IMG/VR virus record: IMGVR_UViG_2537561945_000005
Location: 1-50,588 of that record
Source: a virus
Lineage: Duplodnaviria > Heunggongvirae > Uroviricota > Caudoviricetes
Reading direction: 5' to 3' (one strand)
DNA length: 50,588 nucleotides
Shown one piece after another: positions 38,927 to 50,588 of this stretch. The notes under the pieces were generated by a model, which was not told the origin of the DNA, made no database searches, and worked only from the letters and a program-made list of their open reading frames with translations. How positions within the stretch are numbered: position 1 is the stretch's first letter; each line of letters opens with the position of its first letter. Position numbers and translations under genes: made by a program.

Positions 38927-39796
<870 letters not shown>

Positions 39797-39927: not shown

Positions 39928-41266
39928 CATAAGCGCTAACTTAAGGGTTGTGGTATTACGCCTGATATGATTTAACGTGCCGATGAATTACTCTCACGAT
40001 AACTGGTCAGCAATTCTGGCCCATATTGGTAAGCCCGAAGAACTGGATACTTCGGCACGTAATGCCGGGGCTCTAACCCGCCGCCGCGAAATTCGTGATG
40101 CTGCAACTCTGCTACGTCTGGGGCTGGCTTACGGCCCCGGGGGGATGTCATTACGTGAAGTCACTGCATGGGCTCAGCTCCATGACGTTGCAACATTATC
40201 TGACGTGGCTCTCCTGAAGCGGCTGCGGAATGCCGCCGACTGGTTTGGCATACTTGCCGCACAAACACTTGCTGTACGCGCCGCAGTTACGGGTTGTACA
40301 AGCGGAAAGAGATTGCGTCTTGTCGATGGAACAGCAATCAGTGCGCCCGGGGGCGGCAGCGCTGAATGGCGACTACATATGGGATATGATCCTCATACCT
40401 GTCAGTTCACTGATTTTGAGCTAACCGACAGCAGAGACGCTGAACGGCTGGACCGATTTGCGCAAACGGCAGACGAGATACGCATTGCTGACCGGGGATT
40501 CGGTTCGCGTCCCGAATGTATCCGCTCACTTGCTTTTGGAGAAGCTGATTATATCGTCCGGGTTCACTGGCGAGGATTGCGCTGGTTAACTGCAGAAGGA
40601 ATGCGCTTTGACATGATGGGTTTTCTGCGCGGGCTGGATTGCGGTAAGAACGGTGAAACCACTGTAATGATAGGCAATTCAGGTAATAAAAAAGCCGGAG
40701 CTCCCTTTCCGGCACGTCTCATTGCCGTATCACTTCCTCCCGAAAAAGCATTAATCAGTAAAACCCGACTGCTCAGCGAGAATCGTCGAAAAGGACGAGT
40801 AGTTCAGGCGGAAACGCTGGAAGCAGCGGGCCATGTGCTATTGCTAACATCATTACCGGAAGATGAATATTCAGCAGAGCAAGTGGCTGATTGTTACCGT
40901 CTGCGATGGCAAATTGAACTGGCTTTTAAGCGGCTCAAAAGTTTGCTGCACCTGGATGCTTTGCGTGCAAAGGAACCTGAACTCGCGAAAGCGTGGATAT
41001 TTGCTAATCTACTCGCCGCATTTTTAATTGACGACATAATCCAGCCATCGCTGGATTTCCCCCCCAGAAGTGCCGGATCCGAAAAGAAGAACTAACTCGT
41101 TGTGGAGAATAACAAAAATGGTCATCTGGAGCTTACAGGTGGCCATTCGTGGGACAGTATCCCTGACAGCCTACAAAACGCAATTGAAGAACGCGAGGCA
41201 TCGTCTTAACGAGGCACCGAGGCGTCGCATTCTTCAGATGGTTCAACCCTTAAGTTAGCGCTTATG
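39928..41266 (+). mobile_element. IS186 (IS4 family), complete, with 10-bp target-site duplication
   Basis: 1339-bp element with terminal inverted repeats CATAAGCGCTAACTTAAGGGTTG and direct repeats GGGCAAATCC at 39918-39927 and 41267-41276; target has the GGGG-N6-CCCC pattern. Confidence 0.9.
39983..41095 (+). CDS. insL: IS186 transposase InsL
   Basis: 370 aa from MNYSHDNWSAILAHIGK..., matching E. coli IS186 InsL. Confidence 0.9.
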   Translation: MNYSHDNWSAILAHIGKPEELDTSARNAGALTRRREIRDAATLLRLGLAYGPGGMSLREVTAWAQLHDVATLSDVALLKRLRNAADWFGILAAQTLAVRAAVTGCTSGKRLRLVDGTAISAPGGGSAEWRLHMGYDPHTCQFTDFELTDSRDAERLDRFAQTADEIRIADRGFGSRPECIRSLAFGEADYIVRVHWRGLRWLTAEGMRFDMMGFLRGLDCGKNGETTVMIGNSGNKKAGAPFPARLIAVSLPPEKALISKTRLLSENRRKGRVVQAETLEAAGHVLLLTSLPEDEYSAEQVADCYRLRWQIELAFKRLKSLLHLDALRAKEPELAKAWIFANLLAAFLIDDIIQPSLDFPPRSAGSEKKN

Positions 41267-41873: not shown

Positions 41874-42617
41874 ATGGCAACTACATGTTCAGTTATATTG
41901 ATTTTGGAGTCCTTTGATGTTTATTTCGGAAAAGAGAGTGTGTTTCTGGATAGAGGTTTATCTGTACTTGTCGACTCTAGCTATAGAGATTTTTTCCTGA
42001 CATATCCTGAAAGAGTGATAGTGGCGGATTTTGGCGCTGAGTTTATTAGTCGCTATTTGAAAGCTAATAACTTAAGGGATATTTCTGATTGTAGGGAATA
42101 TCCATCTTATTTAAAAATAAACTTTGCTGACTTCAGTTTAATTAAAGGATTAATTAGTTGGGCTAATCACTGTGCTGAATATATAGAAATTTTTGATGAG
42201 TCTATTGCTTTTACATGTCTCTCTGCATTTTCTTCTGAAAAACAATTTGGAGTATTTCTGTTTGGATGTTTGAAAAGCACAGGGGCTAAAGTTAAAACGA
42301 TTATTCATACGGATTTATCTGCACCATGGCGTCTTAAGGATATATCATCAAGATTATATCTCAGCGAAAGTTTACTAAAGAGGAAATTGAAAGAAGAGGG
42401 GGTATCATTCAGTAAGATCATACTTGATGAGAGGATGCAAATGGCTGAATATTTACTCAGCACTCGTTGTTATCCTATTAGTAAAGTAGCTAAGGTCTGT
42501 GGTTATGCCAGTGTCTCATACTTTACTTATGTATTTAGACGTTATTTTGGTGTTTCTCCAAGTCAATACCCTCAGAGGAGTTCAGAAAGTAAAATTCTTA
42601 CTCACCAGGGAATCTGA
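41874..42617 (+). CDS. AraC-family transcriptional regulator (AppY/EnvY-like)
   Basis: 247 aa with C-terminal AraC-type HTH (ISKVAKVCGYASVSYFTYVFRRYFGVSPSQY); AT-rich gene; first ATG with GGTGG upstream, GTG alternative at 41865. Confidence 0.75.
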   Translation: MATTCSVILILESFDVYFGKESVFLDRGLSVLVDSSYRDFFLTYPERVIVADFGAEFISRYLKANNLRDISDCREYPSYLKINFADFSLIKGLISWANHCAEYIEIFDESIAFTCLSAFSSEKQFGVFLFGCLKSTGAKVKTIIHTDLSAPWRLKDISSRLYLSESLLKRKLKEEGVSFSKIILDERMQMAEYLLSTRCYPISKVAKVCGYASVSYFTYVFRRYFGVSPSQYPQRSSESKILTHQGI

Positions 42618-44524: not shown

Positions 44525-44765
44525 ATTTGACGTGATGATAGGATTGATTAGGAAAATGACCTAAAACCGTATATTTTGATACTTAAGTTTAAACATTAGC
44601 CCTATATCCGATCGCCCTTTGTTACCTACACTTCTATCTTTTTTAGGTTCTAGGGCTGAAAGATTTGAAGATAAGTTTATAAATATCAATAGATTACATG
44701 ATTGTGTTGGTTCTTGGGTAGCCGTAACGCCTAGGGCGGTAGCGTACTTAAGATGAGTATAAAAA

Positions 44766-45974
44766 ATGAACAGTAACTATATGCCATTCACACAACGAGA
44801 TAGTCTCGGAAGATACTATACAAAAGAATCCATAAGTGCATTATTGGTTTCTCAGATGAAAGCTGAAAAAGTCAATAATATTATTGATTTAGCTTCTGGT
44901 GAGGGGAGCTTAACCTATGCTGCTTTAGACCGATGGAAGAATGCAGAAGCATATTCTTTGGATATAGAATCTCGGATGTCAAAAAAAGTATGTGATAATC
45001 TTACTCATATTGTAACAGATGCCCTTGTTCATTCATTTCCTGAAATGCTTGCCCGACATCAAGGAAATTTTGATGTTGCAGTATGTAATCCTCCATTCAC
45101 TCTCCCTGAATGGAGGGATGATTATTTTAAAATCATTAGTGAGATTGGCGCAGATAAATATATATCTGTCTCAAAATATGTCCCAGCAGAGATAATATTT
45201 ATATCTCAAGTCATCAGGTTTCTTAAAAAGGGCGGTGAGGCTGGAATAATTTTACCTGATGGTATATTTACAGCAAGAAAGTTTATAGGTTTAAGACGAT
45301 ATTTATTGAATGAACATTCAATTACAAAAGTCATTGAATTGCCTAGGAATATCTTCAAAAGGACAGAGGCTAAAACACATATTTTAATTTTTAATAAAAA
45401 AATTATGCCTCATCATAAAATACAATTACATTGTATAACTAAAGATGGGGAATTGTCGCCTCCTGTTTTAATTAGAAAAGAAGATGCGGTTGAGAGAATG
45501 GACTACTCTTATCATTATAATAAAAATGAAGGTAAAGGGTTTAGCACAATAGGGATGCTTAAAAACATTTCAATTTTTAGAGGTAGGTTTAATTCAAAGG
45601 AAATTACGGAACATGTTTTTCATACGACAAAATTTAGTGGTGATGAAAAGTACATTAAATTCCACTGCAACTCTGTAGAAGAATTGAAGCCATCAAAATT
45701 AGATGTCATTGCTAAGCCTGGTGATATATTAATAGCAAGAGTTGGGCGAAATTTTCATAAAAAAATATTGTTTGTTGAGAGCGGCTATTCTTATATCAGT
45801 GACTGTATTTTTCTGATACGAGCCTCTGGTGGAGATAAGAAAAAACTATTTGATTTTCTTTGTTCTCAAGATGGGCAAGAGGAATTATCTCGAGCGAGTA
45901 GTGGTGTAGCCGCACAACATATTACAATGGATGCATTAAAAAAAATACATCTTGTAAGGATTAAACATGACTGA
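44766..45974 (+). CDS. N6-adenine DNA methyltransferase, gamma class (M.TaqI-like layout: catalytic domain plus C-terminal putative TRD)
   Basis: Motif X GRYYTKESI, motif I IIDLASGEGSL and motif IV NPPF in N-to-C order within the first ~115 aa; ~200-aa C-terminal domain; AT-rich. Confidence 0.75.
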   Translation: MNSNYMPFTQRDSLGRYYTKESISALLVSQMKAEKVNNIIDLASGEGSLTYAALDRWKNAEAYSLDIESRMSKKVCDNLTHIVTDALVHSFPEMLARHQGNFDVAVCNPPFTLPEWRDDYFKIISEIGADKYISVSKYVPAEIIFISQVIRFLKKGGEAGIILPDGIFTARKFIGLRRYLLNEHSITKVIELPRNIFKRTEAKTHILIFNKKIMPHHKIQLHCITKDGELSPPVLIRKEDAVERMDYSYHYNKNEGKGFSTIGMLKNISIFRGRFNSKEITEHVFHTTKFSGDEKYIKFHCNSVEELKPSKLDVIAKPGDILIARVGRNFHKKILFVESGYSYISDCIFLIRASGGDKKKLFDFLCSQDGQEELSRASSGVAAQHITMDALKKIHLVRIKHD

Positions 45975-47673
45975 TGTGGAATTAGATAGTAATTTTCTTA
46001 TCGAGGAACGAGCTGATTATATTGATGAGGATACGATAAAAAATAATACTATCAGATCTGGAGAGTTTTTCGATATTATACATAATGCTCTTATATCCCC
46101 AGGCATCAAACTTATAGTTGGTCCTAGGGGATGTGGTAAAACACATTTGATGCGTTATGCTTGGGTTGAATGTAAAAACGATGATAACGCACCATTACCA
46201 CTCTATGTTTCTTTTAATAAATATTTTAAGTTAGAGCCGCTTTTAAAAAATAAACCAAATGCAATTGATCTCTTTCATAAATGGGTATTAGCAAAGATAC
46301 TACTCTCTGCTTATGAAATTGCTTGCGATATTGAAGATTCTGAATATCTTGATTTGTCAACGATACTCATAGCGGATAAAGAGTTCCTAATTAATTTAAT
46401 CGTAAGGCTTGAGCAGGGTCTTTCGCCATCATTAGAACAAGAAAACATTGTTCAATTGATCAGTGTTTCTTCTGTCATATCCTCGTTGAGTTCACTATGT
46501 GATTGGCTTGAACGTAAAAGAGTCATTATTTTATTAGACGATGCAGCAATAAGCTTAACTCCTGAATATCTTTACGAGTTTTTTGATATTGTACGTAGTC
46601 TAAAAACCTCAAAAATAGCTTTAAAGGCATCGGTTTATCCTGGAACAACCGAATATGGCCCAAGGTTTCATGTTGCTCATGATGCTGAAACAATTGATGC
46701 TTGGATTTCGGTACAGCACCCTAATTATTCCTCAGTGATGGATGCTATAGCGCAGGCAAGGTTTCCTGGGTATGATGGCATTCCGGATGACTTGAAAGAG
46801 TTATTTAAATTCTCAGCATTTGGTATTCCACGTTCTTTTTTGATGATGTTAAGAGATTATCAAACAACTTTAAGTCAGACAACTCAGCAAAAATTTAATA
46901 AAATAATTGAAAGGTATGTTGAGCTTAGACTCAGCGAATACAGTTCACTAAAAGATAAGCTACCTCGATTGTTTGACATTGTTTCATTAGGTGAATCACT
47001 TTTATTAAAAGTAGTCGAATTACTCAAGGAAAGTAACTCCCAATATAAAGAAGAGAAACAAGTCATAATCGGTATAGAGAAAAATGATAATGTTTATTTT
47101 TCTCGACTCACTAAGCTATTAATTGAAACAGGGCTTTTTTATAATCTTCCTGATATTTCTCATGGTGATGGGCGTACTTATGAAAGATATATACCTCATT
47201 ATGCTTTATTAATAAAGGAAAGAGTGTTTAACGAAGGAAGTAGAGGTTTTTCTCCTTCTCAGATTATTCAAAAAATACTAAGAAAGAATGCTAAGCATCC
47301 TGTCAGAAGAAACATTTCATCATTATTCAATGCTGAGCAACTTGCGAGACTTAAACTAACTTTACCTCCATGCAATAACTGCAAGACTCCGCGATTGACT
47401 GACAATCAAAAATTTTGCCATCATTGTGGGAATCAATTGATTGATGAGTCGGCCTATAATCAGTGCATGTCTATTCCACTGTCAAAAGTACCACATCTAA
47501 CATCTTGGCAAATGCAAAAACTATCTGGGCTGGAAAAAGTAAAAACTATAGGAGATGTATTGTCTTTACAAGACCCTGGGAGTGAGTTAAGAAAAATTCA
47601 CAGAATAGGACCCAAAATTGCCAATAAAATTATGGACAAAGTGTTATTACATGTTGAAGAGTTTTTGTCTTAA
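45967..47673 (+). CDS. P-loop NTPase with C-terminal zinc ribbon and helix-hairpin-helix
   Basis: Walker A GPRGCGKTHLMR, Walker B VIILLDDAA, C-terminal CNNCK...CHHCG and HhH-like IHRIGPKIANKI; 8-nt overlap with the methyltransferase gene. Confidence 0.7.
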   Translation: MTDVELDSNFLIEERADYIDEDTIKNNTIRSGEFFDIIHNALISPGIKLIVGPRGCGKTHLMRYAWVECKNDDNAPLPLYVSFNKYFKLEPLLKNKPNAIDLFHKWVLAKILLSAYEIACDIEDSEYLDLSTILIADKEFLINLIVRLEQGLSPSLEQENIVQLISVSSVISSLSSLCDWLERKRVIILLDDAAISLTPEYLYEFFDIVRSLKTSKIALKASVYPGTTEYGPRFHVAHDAETIDAWISVQHPNYSSVMDAIAQARFPGYDGIPDDLKELFKFSAFGIPRSFLMMLRDYQTTLSQTTQQKFNKIIERYVELRLSEYSSLKDKLPRLFDIVSLGESLLLKVVELLKESNSQYKEEKQVIIGIEKNDNVYFSRLTKLLIETGLFYNLPDISHGDGRTYERYIPHYALLIKERVFNEGSRGFSPSQIIQKILRKNAKHPVRRNISSLFNAEQLARLKLTLPPCNNCKTPRLTDNQKFCHHCGNQLIDESAYNQCMSIPLSKVPHLTSWQMQKLSGLEKVKTIGDVLSLQDPGSELRKIHRIGPKIANKIMDKVLLHVEEFLS

Positions 47674-47743
47674 TTTTGATGGCATGTACTTGTCAATCGT
47701 GTCTTTCTTATCTGAAAAGTTTAATTTAAAAAGAGTCGGGAAA

Positions 47744-48739
47744 ATGGAACTAGAATCAAAAGAGGATTATGAAGAGACCACTCATCATAATGTGGCGTCC
47801 TCAGTTGTCACTGCAACCCATGATAACTTAGATGGAAGAGAGTTTTTTGAACTATGTAGTAATCCAGCTCTAGTTTTTTCGTTTGAGACACACAAAAAAT
47901 TTAATGAGTTACCTGTTGATAGCAAGGAATCCCCGTTAGATCTTTTTATAGCTAATACAAAGCAACTTCACTTGTTAAGATCTGGTGATATTTCAAACAC
48001 ATTAAGCCATCTGTTGTTATTAGGTTATGTGTCTGCAGCCGAAAGTTATTTGCGAGCTCTTATCAGAAATCTAATTAATCATGATGAATATATACAGTCT
48101 ATAGTTTCTGATAAGGCCGTTAGTTATGCAGCGGCACAACACCATAAAAAGGAGTTATTACCAGAAGCTTTACTTGAGGACTTTTCATTGGCAAGCCCTT
48201 ATAATGTTTTTGAAACATTAAAGGACATTATTGGAATGAAAGGACAACGACCAATCGAAATGATGAAATGCTCAAGCGAATTCATGAAAGTTTGCGAGTT
48301 AAGGCATTGTTGTGTTCATCGATTTGGTAAGTTGGGTTCGAAAAATGCAATCCGACTAGGATTGGCTGAACATATGAAGCACTTAGAAAAACCGATAATA
48401 CTCAATAATGATGATCTCGAGCAAATCGCATTTATTGTTGAGAATTTTATTAGAACTTTGAATAATACCGTTTTCAAATTTATAATTAATCGTACAGTTG
48501 AGAACAAAAATAAGGAAAAAGGAGGGGAAAGACTATATGATTCTGAATGGACATGGGTGTTTGAAAAAGATATAAGTCGATACGAAAAGTATTATTCAAT
48601 ATTTAGTGCCAAAAACGATACCCTTCCCGGATTATCATTACAGGATTCATATCAACTTTTTGTTAATGCATATAAGCCTAAACTTCCTGCAAGAAAAAAT
48701 AAAAAAAAACTGAAGAAAATTAACGCCACTACTATCTGA
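47744..48739 (+). CDS. Hypothetical protein, third operon gene (possible HEPN-like R-x4-H motif)
   Basis: ~331-aa ORF after the ATPase; contains ELRHCCVHRFGK fitting R-x4-H in a predicted helical context; upstream in-frame starts at 47618 and 47684 are possible. Confidence 0.55.
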   Translation: MELESKEDYEETTHHNVASSVVTATHDNLDGREFFELCSNPALVFSFETHKKFNELPVDSKESPLDLFIANTKQLHLLRSGDISNTLSHLLLLGYVSAAESYLRALIRNLINHDEYIQSIVSDKAVSYAAAQHHKKELLPEALLEDFSLASPYNVFETLKDIIGMKGQRPIEMMKCSSEFMKVCELRHCCVHRFGKLGSKNAIRLGLAEHMKHLEKPIILNNDDLEQIAFIVENFIRTLNNTVFKFIINRTVENKNKEKGGERLYDSEWTWVFEKDISRYEKYYSIFSAKNDTLPGLSLQDSYQLFVNAYKPKLPARKNKKKLKKINATTI

Positions 48740-48925: not shown

Positions 48926-49429
48926 TTATTGATAGTGTTTTATGTTCAGATAATGCCCGATGACCTTGTCATGCAGCTCCACCGATTTTGAGAACGACAG
49001 TGACTTCCGTCCCAGCCTTGCCAGATGTTGTCTCAGATTCAGATTATGTCGCTCAATGCGCTGAGTGTAACGCTTGCTGATAACGTGCAGCTTTCCCTTC
49101 AGGCGTGATTCATACAGCGGCCAGCCATCCGTCATCCATACCACGACCTCAAAGGCCGACAGCAGGCTCAGAAGACGCTCCAGTGTGGCCAGAGTGCGTT
49201 CACCGAAGACGTGCGCCACAACCGTCCTCCGTATCCTGTCATACGCGTAAAACAGCCAGCGCTGACGTGATTTAGCACCGACGTAGCCCCACTGTTCGTC
49301 CATTTCAGCGCAGACAATCACATCACTGCCCGGTTGTATGCGCGAGGTTACCGACTGCGGCCTGAGTTTTTTAAGTGACGTAAAACCGTGTTGAGGCCAA
49401 CGCCCATAATGCGTGCACTGGCGCGACAT
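48926..49429 (-). CDS. insB: IS1 transposase InsB
   Basis: 167 aa matching IS1 InsB. Confidence 0.88.
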
Positions 49430-49623
49430 CCGACGCCATTCATGGCCATATCAATGATTTTCTGGTGCGTACCGGGCTGAGAGGCGGTGTAAGTGAACTG
49501 TAGTTGCCATGTTTTACGGCAATGAGAGCAGAGATAGCGCTGATGTCCGGCAGTGCTTTTGCCGTTACGCACCACGCCTTCAGTAGCGGAGCAGGAAGGA
49601 CATCTGATGGAAATGGAAGCCAC
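49348..49623 (-). CDS. insA: IS1 InsA
   Basis: 91 aa [43 protein letters not shown]... matching IS1 InsA. Confidence 0.88.
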
Positions 49624-50033: not shown

Positions 50034-50588
50034 TTATTGTTCAGCTTTTTCAACAACAAAACCATTTTGCCAAACAAACACAATCAAGAGTTCAATATTA
50101 ACAATACCCCATTGATTAGAAATGGCGACAATTTCACCAGAAGGAAGTGTAATCAATGCATCTTCGTTGATATGATAGCGACTCTTTTGCTTCTCTGGTA
50201 TCTGATCGATAAGTATAACCGTACGTTTTTTAAAGTCTTCACTTAATCCATTTATTAAATCATTATAACTTGCAGGGTTAAATTGTTTTATACAATCGCG
50301 TAATAACTCAAGCGCTAACTTACGTTTATTAAGTTTTTTATCTTTGCATATATACCACGTATAGCCCTTCTCTTTTTTCTGACTGCTAATTAGCTGCTCA
50401 TCACGTTTTTCACGAAACTTAACTTGATATTCTTCCAATTCAGGAACCGGTATGATTTGCTCTGCATTGATCAGAACATCATCATTAAATCTATAAGGCG
50501 TCAGACGAACACATCGAATGTCTACCCCTTTATCTCTTAACCAAATCGCAGTGGTAGTCAGTTCCTTGCTAAAATCCGATGAAGCCAA
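50034..50588 (-). CDS. Hypothetical protein, N-terminally truncated by the window edge
   Basis: 184 codons open to the window end; AT-rich; no family recognised. Confidence 0.4.
   Translation of the reverse strand: MASSDFSKELTTTAIWLRDKGVDIRCVRLTPYRFNDDVLINAEQIIPVPELEEYQVKFREKRDEQLISSQKKEKGYTWYICKDKKLNKRKLALELLRDCIKQFNPASYNDLINGLSEDFKKRTVILIDQIPEKQKSRYHINEDALITLPSGEIVAISNQWGIVNIELLIVFVWQNGFVVEKAEQ

Follow-up and report, generated by a model that had tools for sequence, protein, structure and literature searches.

We analyzed a 50,588-nucleotide stretch of DNA (IMG/VR record IMGVR_UViG_2537561945_000005, positions 1 to 50,588; hereafter, the window). Over the segment with the three genes treated here, the window is 100% identical to Escherichia coli BE311 and 99.9% identical to E. 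coli HS. At positions 44,766 to 48,739, the window carries three genes, designated g1, g2 and g3 (together, the triad), which encode a predicted DNA methyltransferase, a P-loop NTPase and a HEPN protein, respectively. From the results below, the triad appears to be an anti-phage system that has not been described before and that would mark its own DNA and attack RNA.

The three genes and their predicted products

The initial annotation, made from the letters of the window, described three co-oriented and tightly packed genes, the first two overlapping by 8 nt. The open reading frame (ORF) listing confirmed three plus-strand genes within 44,766-48,739, where position 48,739 is the g3 stop. The g1/g2 overlap is 8 nt long (ATGACTGA), and the RefSeq start of g3 (ATG at 47,651) gives a 23-nt overlap with the g2 stop; a second ATG is present at 47,744. 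These overlaps between the reading frames suggest that the genes are translationally coupled and that their products form a stoichiometric complex. The triad had also been described as more AT-rich than the neighboring prophage, and its GC content of 0.338 is indeed lower than that of the whole window (0.481) and that of the prophage on its left side (0.503). A 241-nt leader (44,525-44,765, +), read from the sequence as the putative promoter region of the operon, precedes g1; a scan for consensus promoters and terminators revealed nothing above shuffled controls.

The g1 gene (44,766-45,974, +) encodes a protein of 402 residues (WP_001375306). Motif I, which is associated with S-adenosylmethionine (SAM) binding, reads IIDLASGEGSL (residues 39-49; 44,880-44,912, +), and its pattern LG.G.G.L is conserved at 80% or more. 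The catalytic motif IV, NPPF, is located at residues 108-111 (45,087-45,098, +), and NPP[F/Y] was present in 69/69 homologues. A domain resembling the target recognition domain (TRD) of HsdS occupies residues 255-400 (45,528-45,965, +) and includes the conserved segment GDILIARVG. Motif I, then NPPF, then a C-terminal TRD-like domain is the gamma-class order, as had been read initially. The Pfam models N6_Mtase (1.7e-22; 80.6 bits against a cut-off of 20.4) and Eco57I (6e-11) matched g1, and the PADLOC MTase_II model PDLC03285 aligned with it end to end (8e-237, 784 bits). The NCBIfam models for MAD2, HsdM and PglX all scored far below threshold, residues 258-400 matched the MAD5 S-subunit model (7e-5), and the nearest solved relatives of g1 are HsdM subunits. 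Judged by these motifs and profile matches, g1 is a gamma-class N6-adenine DNA methyltransferase with its own HsdS-type recognition domain, and it is predicted to be monomeric.

A hypervariable TRD, like those of restriction-modification (R-M) enzymes, was expected in g1. The mean pairwise identity was 0.33 for the TRD-like domain versus 0.365 for the catalytic domain, and the two domains covaried (r = 0.81); the expected variability was thus not found. In addition, 0 of 685 pairs had unrelated TRDs beside conserved catalytic domains, so that no domain swapping was seen among them. At a TRD identity of approximately 33%, the specificities of homologues may differ.

The g2 gene (45,967-47,673, +) encodes a protein of 568 residues (WP_000132879) from a family of more than 700 full-length proteins of approximately 570 residues. 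The Walker A and B boxes, the CxxC...CxxC zinc ribbon and the helix-hairpin-helix (HhH) motif that had been assigned to g2 were all recovered, and they are invariant or nearly so in the family. In particular, Walker A (GPRGCGKTH, residues 52-60; 46,120-46,146, +) and Walker B (ILLDDAA, residues 188-194; 46,528-46,548, +) are each kept in 73/73 sequences, and Walker B has the hhhhDD form typical of STAND NTPases. The zinc ribbon follows the pattern CxxC-x11-CxxC (residues 469-487; 47,371-47,427, +), with its four cysteines invariant (73/73). The C-terminal HhH region (residues ~496-567; 47,452-47,667, +) includes the hairpin PGSELRKIHRIGPKIA (residues 537-552; 47,575-47,622, +), and P537, L541 and G548 are invariant. 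Additionally, an N-terminal EERAD motif (residues 13-17; 46,003-46,017, +), of which R15, A16 and D17 are invariant in the alignment, is situated in a region with a low predicted local distance difference test (pLDDT) score and could be a partner-docking peptide. The invariant elements of the family as a whole are GPRGxGKTH, LLDDAA, the four zinc-ribbon cysteines, the HhH hairpin and EERAD.

In the AlphaFold2 model of g2 (pLDDT 85), the nucleotide-binding domain (NBD) contains a large helical insertion and is followed by a helical domain, then by a winged helix and a zinc ribbon, and the HhH tail is helical; the winged-helix-like module spans residues ~368-417 (47,068-47,217, +). Walker A and B, the helical domain and the winged helix after the NBD place g2 with the STAND/ORC-Cdc6 AAA+ proteins, and a likeness was also found to the DNA-loading or DNA-scanning AAA+ proteins TnsC, MuB, Orc1 and BrxC. 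The RefSeq name, 'ORC-CDC6 family AAA ATPase', derives from a PF24389 match of 37.9 bits (cut-off 27) that covers 95 of the 571 profile positions (27-121). Upon alignment of g2 with a bona fide PF24389 protein (locus L097) by hhalign, 66 columns around the P-loop were matched with a probability of 81%, and the PF01637 score of g2 (23 bits) was below the cut-off of 33.2. On the strength of the model, g2 is described here as a STAND/ORC-Cdc6-type NTPase switch with a predicted DNA-binding zinc-ribbon/HhH tail.

The g3 gene (47,651-48,739, +; alternative start at 47,744) encodes a protein of 362 residues (WP_000920174). Its sequence RHCCVH had been noted to fit the HEPN signature R-x4-H, and the fit holds: in the catalytic motif RHCCVHR (residues 218-224; 48,302-48,322, +), R218 and H223 are kept in 75/75 sequences, and the family alignment shows CELRHCCVHRFGKLG to be invariant. 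No match was obtained in Pfam (g3 and 34 aligned relatives, even at E <= 1), in NCBIfam (g3) or in a PDB profile search, and a viral fold search (BFVD) returned nothing significant. The link to HEPN comes only from the fold search and from very distant relatives. The AlphaFold2 model of g3 (pLDDT 79.8) is all-helical from residue 95, with the first ~60-70 residues disordered and unconserved, and the fold search identified the four-helix up-down core of HEPN domains. Two distant members of the g3 family, P0365 and P0364, scored 25.3 and 20.3 bits, respectively, against PF18735 (gathering threshold 28.4) over profile positions 4-188 of 191, and one g3 homologue is named RiboL-PSP-HEPN in UniRef. 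The family gave 172 hits in a word-indexed search and 416 clusters at 50% identity in an exhaustive profile search, and nearly all of its members stand alone, with lengths of 270-310 residues. From the predicted fold, the motif and the transitive Pfam link, we assign g3 to a RiboL-PSP-like clade of HEPN proteins as a divergent member, and we infer that it is an RNase.

The g3 copy of E. coli HS (L001:15152-16222) is annotated with 356 residues, compared with 362 in the window. The HS match comprises 4,397 versus 4,401 bases over the 4.4-kb segment, which suggests that the C-terminus differs in HS because of a short insertion or deletion close to the 3' end of g3.

These assignments bear on what might be cut. 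If g2 and g3 formed an unconventional ATP-dependent restriction enzyme, they would cut unmethylated DNA, and the DNase activity would reside either in a cryptic site of g2 or in the HEPN-like fold. In R-M systems, a methyltransferase is commonly found beside an NTPase that has DNA-binding domains, g1 is filed by PADLOC as a Type II methyltransferase, and the likeness of g2 to DNA-loading proteins agrees with this explanation. However, Pfam, PADLOC, NCBIfam and the fold search revealed no DNase or helicase domain in g1, g2 or g3, and no signal of PD-(D/E)xK, HNH, GIY-YIG, PLD or Toprim in g2 or g3. To our knowledge, every characterized HEPN enzyme is a metal-independent RNase that uses the 2'-OH. 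We regard DNA cleavage by the triad as very improbable.

They also bear on what might be marked. With self-marking at the RNA level, g1 would methylate an adenine of tRNA or rRNA and thereby shield host RNA from g3, and unmodified phage-encoded or newly made RNA would be cut. The NPPY/F chemistry is common to RNA m6A and glutamine methyltransferases, weak NCBIfam matches to PrmC and RsmD-type enzymes were found, and one g1 homologue is named TrmN6 in a JGI record. Such marking would also suit an effector that is a predicted RNase and a recognition domain that is conserved rather than shuffled, as for a fixed RNA target. Nevertheless, the best matches of g1 are all DNA methyltransferases (HsdM, the Eco57I family, MAD2 and BsaXI), its C-terminal domain resembles HsdS TRDs, and g2 carries DNA-binding modules; an RNA mark seems hardly probable at all.

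Linkage, decay and a proposed mechanism of the triad

The initial annotation called for a check of neighborhood conservation, and homologues of the three genes were found to co-occur across Proteobacteria, Bacteroidota and other phyla, so that the first of the refuting outcomes listed there does not apply. A collection with one genome per species (approximately 100,000 species) was scanned for g2 relatives; they were found at 95 places, and 80 loci were analyzed. We found g3 directly downstream of g2 in 77 of the 80 loci, the exceptions being two contig ends and one fragmented gene, and a g1-type methyltransferase was adjacent in 74. Among these 74 loci, the methyltransferase was upstream and co-oriented in 52, followed the ATPase and g3 in 12, and was upstream and divergent in 10. 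Because the adjacency is kept despite the changed position and strand of the methyltransferase, it points to functional coupling and not to inherited synteny. Four distant g3 homologues (from Stenotrophomonas, a Yersinia prophage, a metagenome contig and Pseudomonas viridiflava) were likewise all located in cassettes of a methyltransferase (402-405 residues), an ATPase (573-579 residues) and g3. In the reverse test, three of four sampled distant g1 homologues were in triads, and the fourth was beside another system.

The evolutionary distances of the three proteins were correlated, with Mantel r values of 0.67 for g1-g2, 0.88 for g2-g3 and 0.73 for g1-g3 (each p = 0.001), so that the tightest correlation was that between g2 and g3. 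The conservation of NPP[F/Y] (69/69), of Walker A/B and the zinc cysteines (73/73), and of R218 and H223 (75/75) indicates that all three predicted activities are under purifying selection. Since the methyl-transfer chemistry is conserved over phylum-level distances, methylation itself appears to matter.

We also compared copies of the triad that have decayed. The g2 gene is split by an insertion sequence (IS), IS3 or IS1, in E. coli strains 167, HCP8S3_I1 and MSB1_1D; in MSB1_1D an IS1B is also present in g3, and in strain 163 g3 is truncated by IS903B. In all four of these IS-disrupted strains (loci L099-L102), g1 is intact, and g2 is fragmented beside a full-length g1 at L080, L082, L092 and the Vibrio locus L096. 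In this small sample, the pattern of decay is the one expected if the effector arm imposes a cost and the methylase either protects or does no harm. BREX is absent downstream in three of the four IS-disrupted strains, where the gene after IS1 encodes a basic amino acid/polyamine antiporter.

The same pattern would also fit a selfish addiction or stabilization module, and not a dedicated anti-phage system, with the methyltransferase as antidote and g2-g3 as poison, in which loss of the cassette would lead to dilution of methylation and then to post-segregational killing by the RNase, so that the island or prophage with the cassette would be stabilized. Classical Type II R-M systems act as addiction modules, the cassette is always found on mobile or variable DNA (islands, a prophage and a few plasmids), and it is the effector genes, not the methyltransferase, that are naturally inactivated. 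However, the cassette is rare on plasmids (5/72,556), which are the usual home of addiction modules, intact g2-g3 pairs that lack the methyltransferase exist (see below), and placement beside BREX, CARF/PRTase and toxin-antitoxin genes fits defense. Addiction would not exclude defense, and as the explanation of the triad we consider it quite improbable.

A protein of 522 residues, P0038, was observed on metagenome contigs (L011-L013); in it, the methyltransferase catalytic domain is joined directly to a g3 homologue, and the TRD and the ATPase are missing. We rejected P0038 as evidence of direct coupling between the methyltransferase and HEPN, as it has neither TRD nor ATPase and is found on three short contigs of one study. 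It probably arose by an in-frame deletion. A functional P0038 would go against the 2013 rule that no HEPN domain is fused to a methylase (Anantharaman 2013).

From the linkage and domain content of the triad, we infer phage defense activity that is coupled to modification. The reading that we adopt, tentatively and without calling it probable, is that the triad is an autonomous and horizontally mobile immunity cassette with the logic of an R-M system and an RNase as effector. In this model, g1 would methylate a short motif across the host chromosome as a self-mark, and g2 would survey DNA, either on its own, by means of its winged helix, zinc ribbon and HhH tail, or together with g1, which would then serve as the specificity subunit of a complex. 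Unmethylated incoming DNA would then bring g2 into an ATP-bound, oligomeric state, and the active assembly would switch on g3, which probably dimerizes to form a composite HEPN site. The activated g3 would cut RNA (phage transcripts, tRNA or rRNA), phage gene expression would be halted, and the infected cell would perhaps be aborted. That the restriction arm cuts RNA and not DNA, with the g1 mark read by g2 directly or via g1 and g3 licensed on unmarked DNA, is in our view possible rather than probable. We favor this RNase-effector model because the methyl-transfer chemistry is conserved, g2 has DNA-binding modules, no DNase or helicase was found, the genes appear to be translationally coupled, and the decay pattern agrees with it.

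Several points weigh against the RNase-effector model. We know of no characterized precedent for a HEPN RNase as the sole effector under a DNA-methylation sensor. The g1 TRD evolves in step with the catalytic domain, whereas enzymes of Type I, Type IIG and BREX systems typically shuffle their TRDs in specificity arms races. The Pfam matches behind the DNA-binding tail of g2 are below threshold, namely Zn_ribbon_3 on the isolated tail (2e-4) and HHH_8 (0.0076), as is HHH_5 in the Myxococcus homologue (0.0011); these assignments, individually sub-threshold, are nonetheless supported because the residues are invariant. Furthermore, intact g2-g3 pairs from two Thiotrichales (L031 and L046) and from Flavobacterium sp. 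ACN6 (L049) have no g1-type methyltransferase in the fetched flanks. These pairs keep all catalytic residues and are set among housekeeping genes (nuoJ, purM and thrC), which implies that g2-g3 is not obligately lethal in the absence of a methyltransferase in cis, unless a methyltransferase acts in trans. In other Bacteroidota, the downstream methyltransferase is far more divergent (phmmer E 3e-7 to 9e-14). In the available part of a PacBio study of E. coli HS, the BREX motif is the only one reported, which speaks neither for nor against g1 activity. With these points considered, the triad is a credible and widespread candidate for methylation-associated, NTPase-switched immunity with a HEPN effector.

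Island setting and distribution

The triad is preceded by a P4-type (DUF4102/Arm-DNA-bind_3) tyrosine integrase (WP_000772656; 43,316-44,524, +), which matched the Pfam models Arm-DNA-bind_3 (3.8e-29), Phage_int_M (4.8e-34) and Phage_integrase (7e-23). The initial annotation had placed the triad next to a tRNA-site integrase. This description is right for the origin of the island, as E. coli strain 163 has the ancestral order, in which tRNA-Thr is directly followed by the integrase and then the triad, but it does not apply to the window. Here, the original attachment site according to the order in strain 163, thrW (tRNA-Thr(CGU); 1,369-1,444, +; ARAGORN), is 42 kb from the integrase, and a lambdoid prophage of approximately 38 kb and IS remnants intervene. 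The BREX island of E. coli HS also sits at thrW, with a P4-family integrase (PMC9009780).

In BE311, the order is proA, thrW, the ~38-kb lambdoid prophage, a GIY-YIG gene, IS421, an AraC regulator, an IS3 fragment, the P4-type integrase, the triad, IS1, a frameshifted gene and then, beyond the window, BREX-1 (brxA, brxB, brxC, pglX and pglZ). The gene order in HS is the same, and the presence of BREX-1 just past IS1 in both strains is in line with the defense-island context proposed earlier. The IS1 element (48,926-49,623, -) bounds the cassette, is not part of the system, and separates the triad from the pseudogene and, past the window end, from BREX-1. E. coli HS is the reference strain for BREX genetics, and the triad could confound experiments on that island; it could also contribute to the phage resistance of HS that remains once brx is deleted.

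The segment was found in 148 of 5,426 complete E. coli genomes (2.7%), in all of which it is chromosomal and single-copy, with an identity of at least 99%. No g2 homologue was found among 50,697 phage records. Elsewhere, the triad occupies the moron position of a Yersinia prophage, adjoining the lysis cassette; it adjoins an integrase in Stenotrophomonas and a PRTase/CARF system in Pseudomonas, and the Vibrio locus adjoins HipA and a resolvase. Such contexts are typical of defense cargo.

The remaining features of the window were as follows. The lambdoid prophage (window positions 1500-38500) looks complete; it has integrated at thrW and separates the tRNA from the older island, with its own integrase next to the tRNA according to the BE311 annotation. 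The same annotation gives it the Ral anti-restriction protein, SieB, a phage N6-adenine methyltransferase, an Iss/Bor lipoprotein and a porin. A prophage with anti-restriction functions thus directly adjoins two methylation-based systems. At the junction of prophage and island is a gene with a LEM-3-like GIY-YIG domain (38,927-39,700, -), followed by IS421 (39,983-41,095), an AT-rich gene for an AraC-family regulator (41,874-42,617) and an IS3 integrase-core fragment; these four look like remnants of earlier cargo at the same hotspot. Between IS1 and BREX-1, an AT-rich ORF (50,034-50,588, -) runs off the window end. It is a frameshifted hypothetical protein in RefSeq, had no Pfam match, and may be a decayed defense gene.

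Comparison with known systems

The profile and PADLOC searches suggested in the initial annotation did not reveal g2 or g3 to be a subunit of a classified system, which was the second refuting outcome listed there. PADLOC 2.0 recognized the methyltransferase alone of the three proteins; for g2 and g3 it gave marginal partial matches to HEC-02A (g2; a Hma-embedded candidate; 7.7e-5 over 35 residues) and RTasHEPN (0.004), and NCBIfam (June 2026) had an equivalog for none of the three. The RefSeq accessions of g1-g3 appeared in no searchable paper and not in the DefensePredictor supplements. The BREX-diversity, HEPN-census, language-model and host-dependent R-M (EcoSal Plus) papers contained no description of the triad, and an in-silico mention may be present in the source of PF24389 (Aravind-lab 2023 NAR). 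The cassette is a real and recurrent gap in current catalogues of defense systems, considering its share of complete E. coli genomes and the 95 places with g2 relatives.

The view that the triad does not fit the Type I, Type II or BREX gene sets was borne out, as the defining components of each are lacking. Type I R-M needs a separate HsdS and an HsdR, whereas the triad consists of three genes, none with helicase motifs; g1 scored 46 bits against the hsdM model TIGR00497 (cut-off 242.75). Orthodox Type II R-M fails because g2 and g3 belong to no nuclease family and have the predicted folds of a STAND-type NTPase and a HEPN protein. MADS was likewise not matched, with 58.6 bits for the MAD2 model NF047738 (cut-off 720) and a mad8 match (0.004) that was limited to the P-loop.

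BREX type 1 differs in that BrxC and PglX are each approximately 1200 residues long and clustered with PglZ, whereas the triad has no such proteins and lacks PglZ, BrxA/B and BrxL; g1 scored 30.7 bits against PglX (cut-off 500 bits). No homologue of BrxA/B/C, PglX or PglZ was found within 7 kb of the triad at the 80 loci outside E. coli. The triad was also considered as a BREX accessory set, and this was rejected because these loci have no BREX proteins and some E. coli triads have no BREX downstream. The triad is an autonomous module.

For the individual proteins, we compared g2 with STAND NTPases in defense (Avs and bacterial NLR-like proteins) and with the PF01637 'archaeal ATPase' proteins (PAB2304, SSO1545 and RADAR RdrA). 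Avs combines effector and sensor in one chain and senses phage proteins. In contrast, g2 has no fused effector or repeat sensor; it has a zinc-ribbon/HhH tail and is accompanied by a methyltransferase and a HEPN protein. RiboL-PSP-HEPN proteins (PF18735) share the all-helical HEPN core and the R-x4-H site with g3, but g3 has extra conserved N- and C-terminal helices, and the RiboL-PSP contexts (L-PSP fusion and ParB operon; Anantharaman et al. 2013) are different.

A second three-gene system was observed in the course of these comparisons. It comprises PRTase-CE, a bona fide PF24389 ORC-CDC6-like ATPase of 650-670 residues and a protein of approximately 300 residues that matches the PADLOC model 'CARF6' (5.5e-78). 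In Pseudomonas viridiflava (L009:9099-12949), it immediately follows the triad; in Dechloromonas agitata (L097:6263-10029), it adjoins a g1-type methyltransferase without g2 or g3. We rejected it as a variant of the triad, since the third protein has no relation to g3 and the similarity of the ATPase to g2 is confined to the P-loop. The g1-type methyltransferases may partner with more than one NTPase system.

PrrC-EcoprrI and RloC resemble the triad in that an NTPase and a HEPN RNase are embedded genetically with a DNA modification enzyme, and their RNase was proposed to stay inactive as long as the R-M partner is undisturbed (Anantharaman 2013). In PrrC, however, an ABC-type ATPase and HEPN form one polypeptide inside a complete hsdMSR, whereas the triad has a STAND-type NTPase, a separate HEPN protein, no HsdR and no separate HsdS. 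Ronin (HsdS, HsdM and RonA) is also a nuclease-less, methyltransferase-based module with a toxic effector, found in E. coli between a P4-type (DUF4102) integrase and BREX. Its effector RonA is a membrane peptide of 61 residues, its HsdS is separate, and its methyltransferase catalysis was shown to be dispensable, whereas the predicted effector of the triad is an NTPase with a HEPN protein. Neither a conserved small transmembrane ORF of the RonA kind nor a separate hsdS was found in the triad module. Ronin is largely limited to E. coli and its relatives, whereas the triad occurs in several phyla.

Ronin, PrrC and PARIS provide the pattern for an explanation of the triad as a decoy or guard (anti-anti-restriction) system. 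Here, the HsdM-like methyltransferase with its TRD would be bait for DNA-mimicking anti-restriction proteins of phages (such as Ocr and ArdA) that would otherwise disable a neighboring R-M or BREX system; binding of the mimic would release or activate g2, the HEPN RNase would cause abortive infection, and methylation would be incidental. Ronin, made up of hsdS, hsdM and a small toxin without hsdR, is triggered by Ocr, ArdA and Aop1 and does not require methyltransferase catalysis for this, and its slot in E. coli is that of the triad in HS and BE311. Ocr binds PglX and M.EcoKI (PMC9009780), and PrrC-like control was proposed for R-M-linked HEPN domains (Anantharaman 2013). The lack of TRD swapping is as expected of bait that does not track specificities, and the g2-g3 pairs without a methyltransferase are viable. 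However, if the methyltransferase restrained the effector, these pairs should be toxic, and if catalysis were dispensable, the conservation of NPP[F/Y] and the SAM motif across phyla would be unexpected. A sensor of protein mimics alone would not need the three DNA-binding modules of g2, and the triad is without BREX at all 80 loci outside E. coli and in several E. coli strains. The decoy explanation is the main and a serious rival of the RNase-effector model, although we judge it rather unlikely.

The conceptually closest system is Hma, or BREX-related (BR) type 1, followed by BREX, PrrC/EcoprrI and Ronin. Hma/BR type 1 consists of a DUF499 ORC-Cdc6-type ATPase, an N6-methyltransferase and a Swi2/Snf2 helicase-nuclease, and in approximately half of the systems a HEPN domain is fused to the N-terminus of the ATPase and was proposed to be a back-up suicide effector (PMC12839542). 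An N6-adenine methyltransferase, a STAND/ORC-Cdc6-type ATPase and a HEPN RNase, all predicted in the triad, are thus common to both. The triad differs from Hma/BR in that it has no helicase or DNase and its HEPN is a separate protein and the sole predicted effector. Moreover, g2 is a protein of approximately 570 residues with a zinc-ribbon/HhH tail, not a DUF499 protein with a winged helix-turn-helix and RRM, and g1 is a 400-residue fusion of methyltransferase and TRD. None of the PADLOC Hma models was matched, and the conserved module contains no helicase gene.

If the triad is an active defense system, it would be the simplest known module in which a DNA methyltransferase is linked to an RNase effector through an NTPase switch, without helicase, DNase or phosphatase, and a minimal autonomous link between epigenetic self-recognition of DNA and RNA-targeting immunity. 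It would then offer a model for how STAND-type switches control trans-acting effectors and a three-protein model for how the cleavage-less, methylation-dependent systems BREX and Hma/BR sense non-self DNA.

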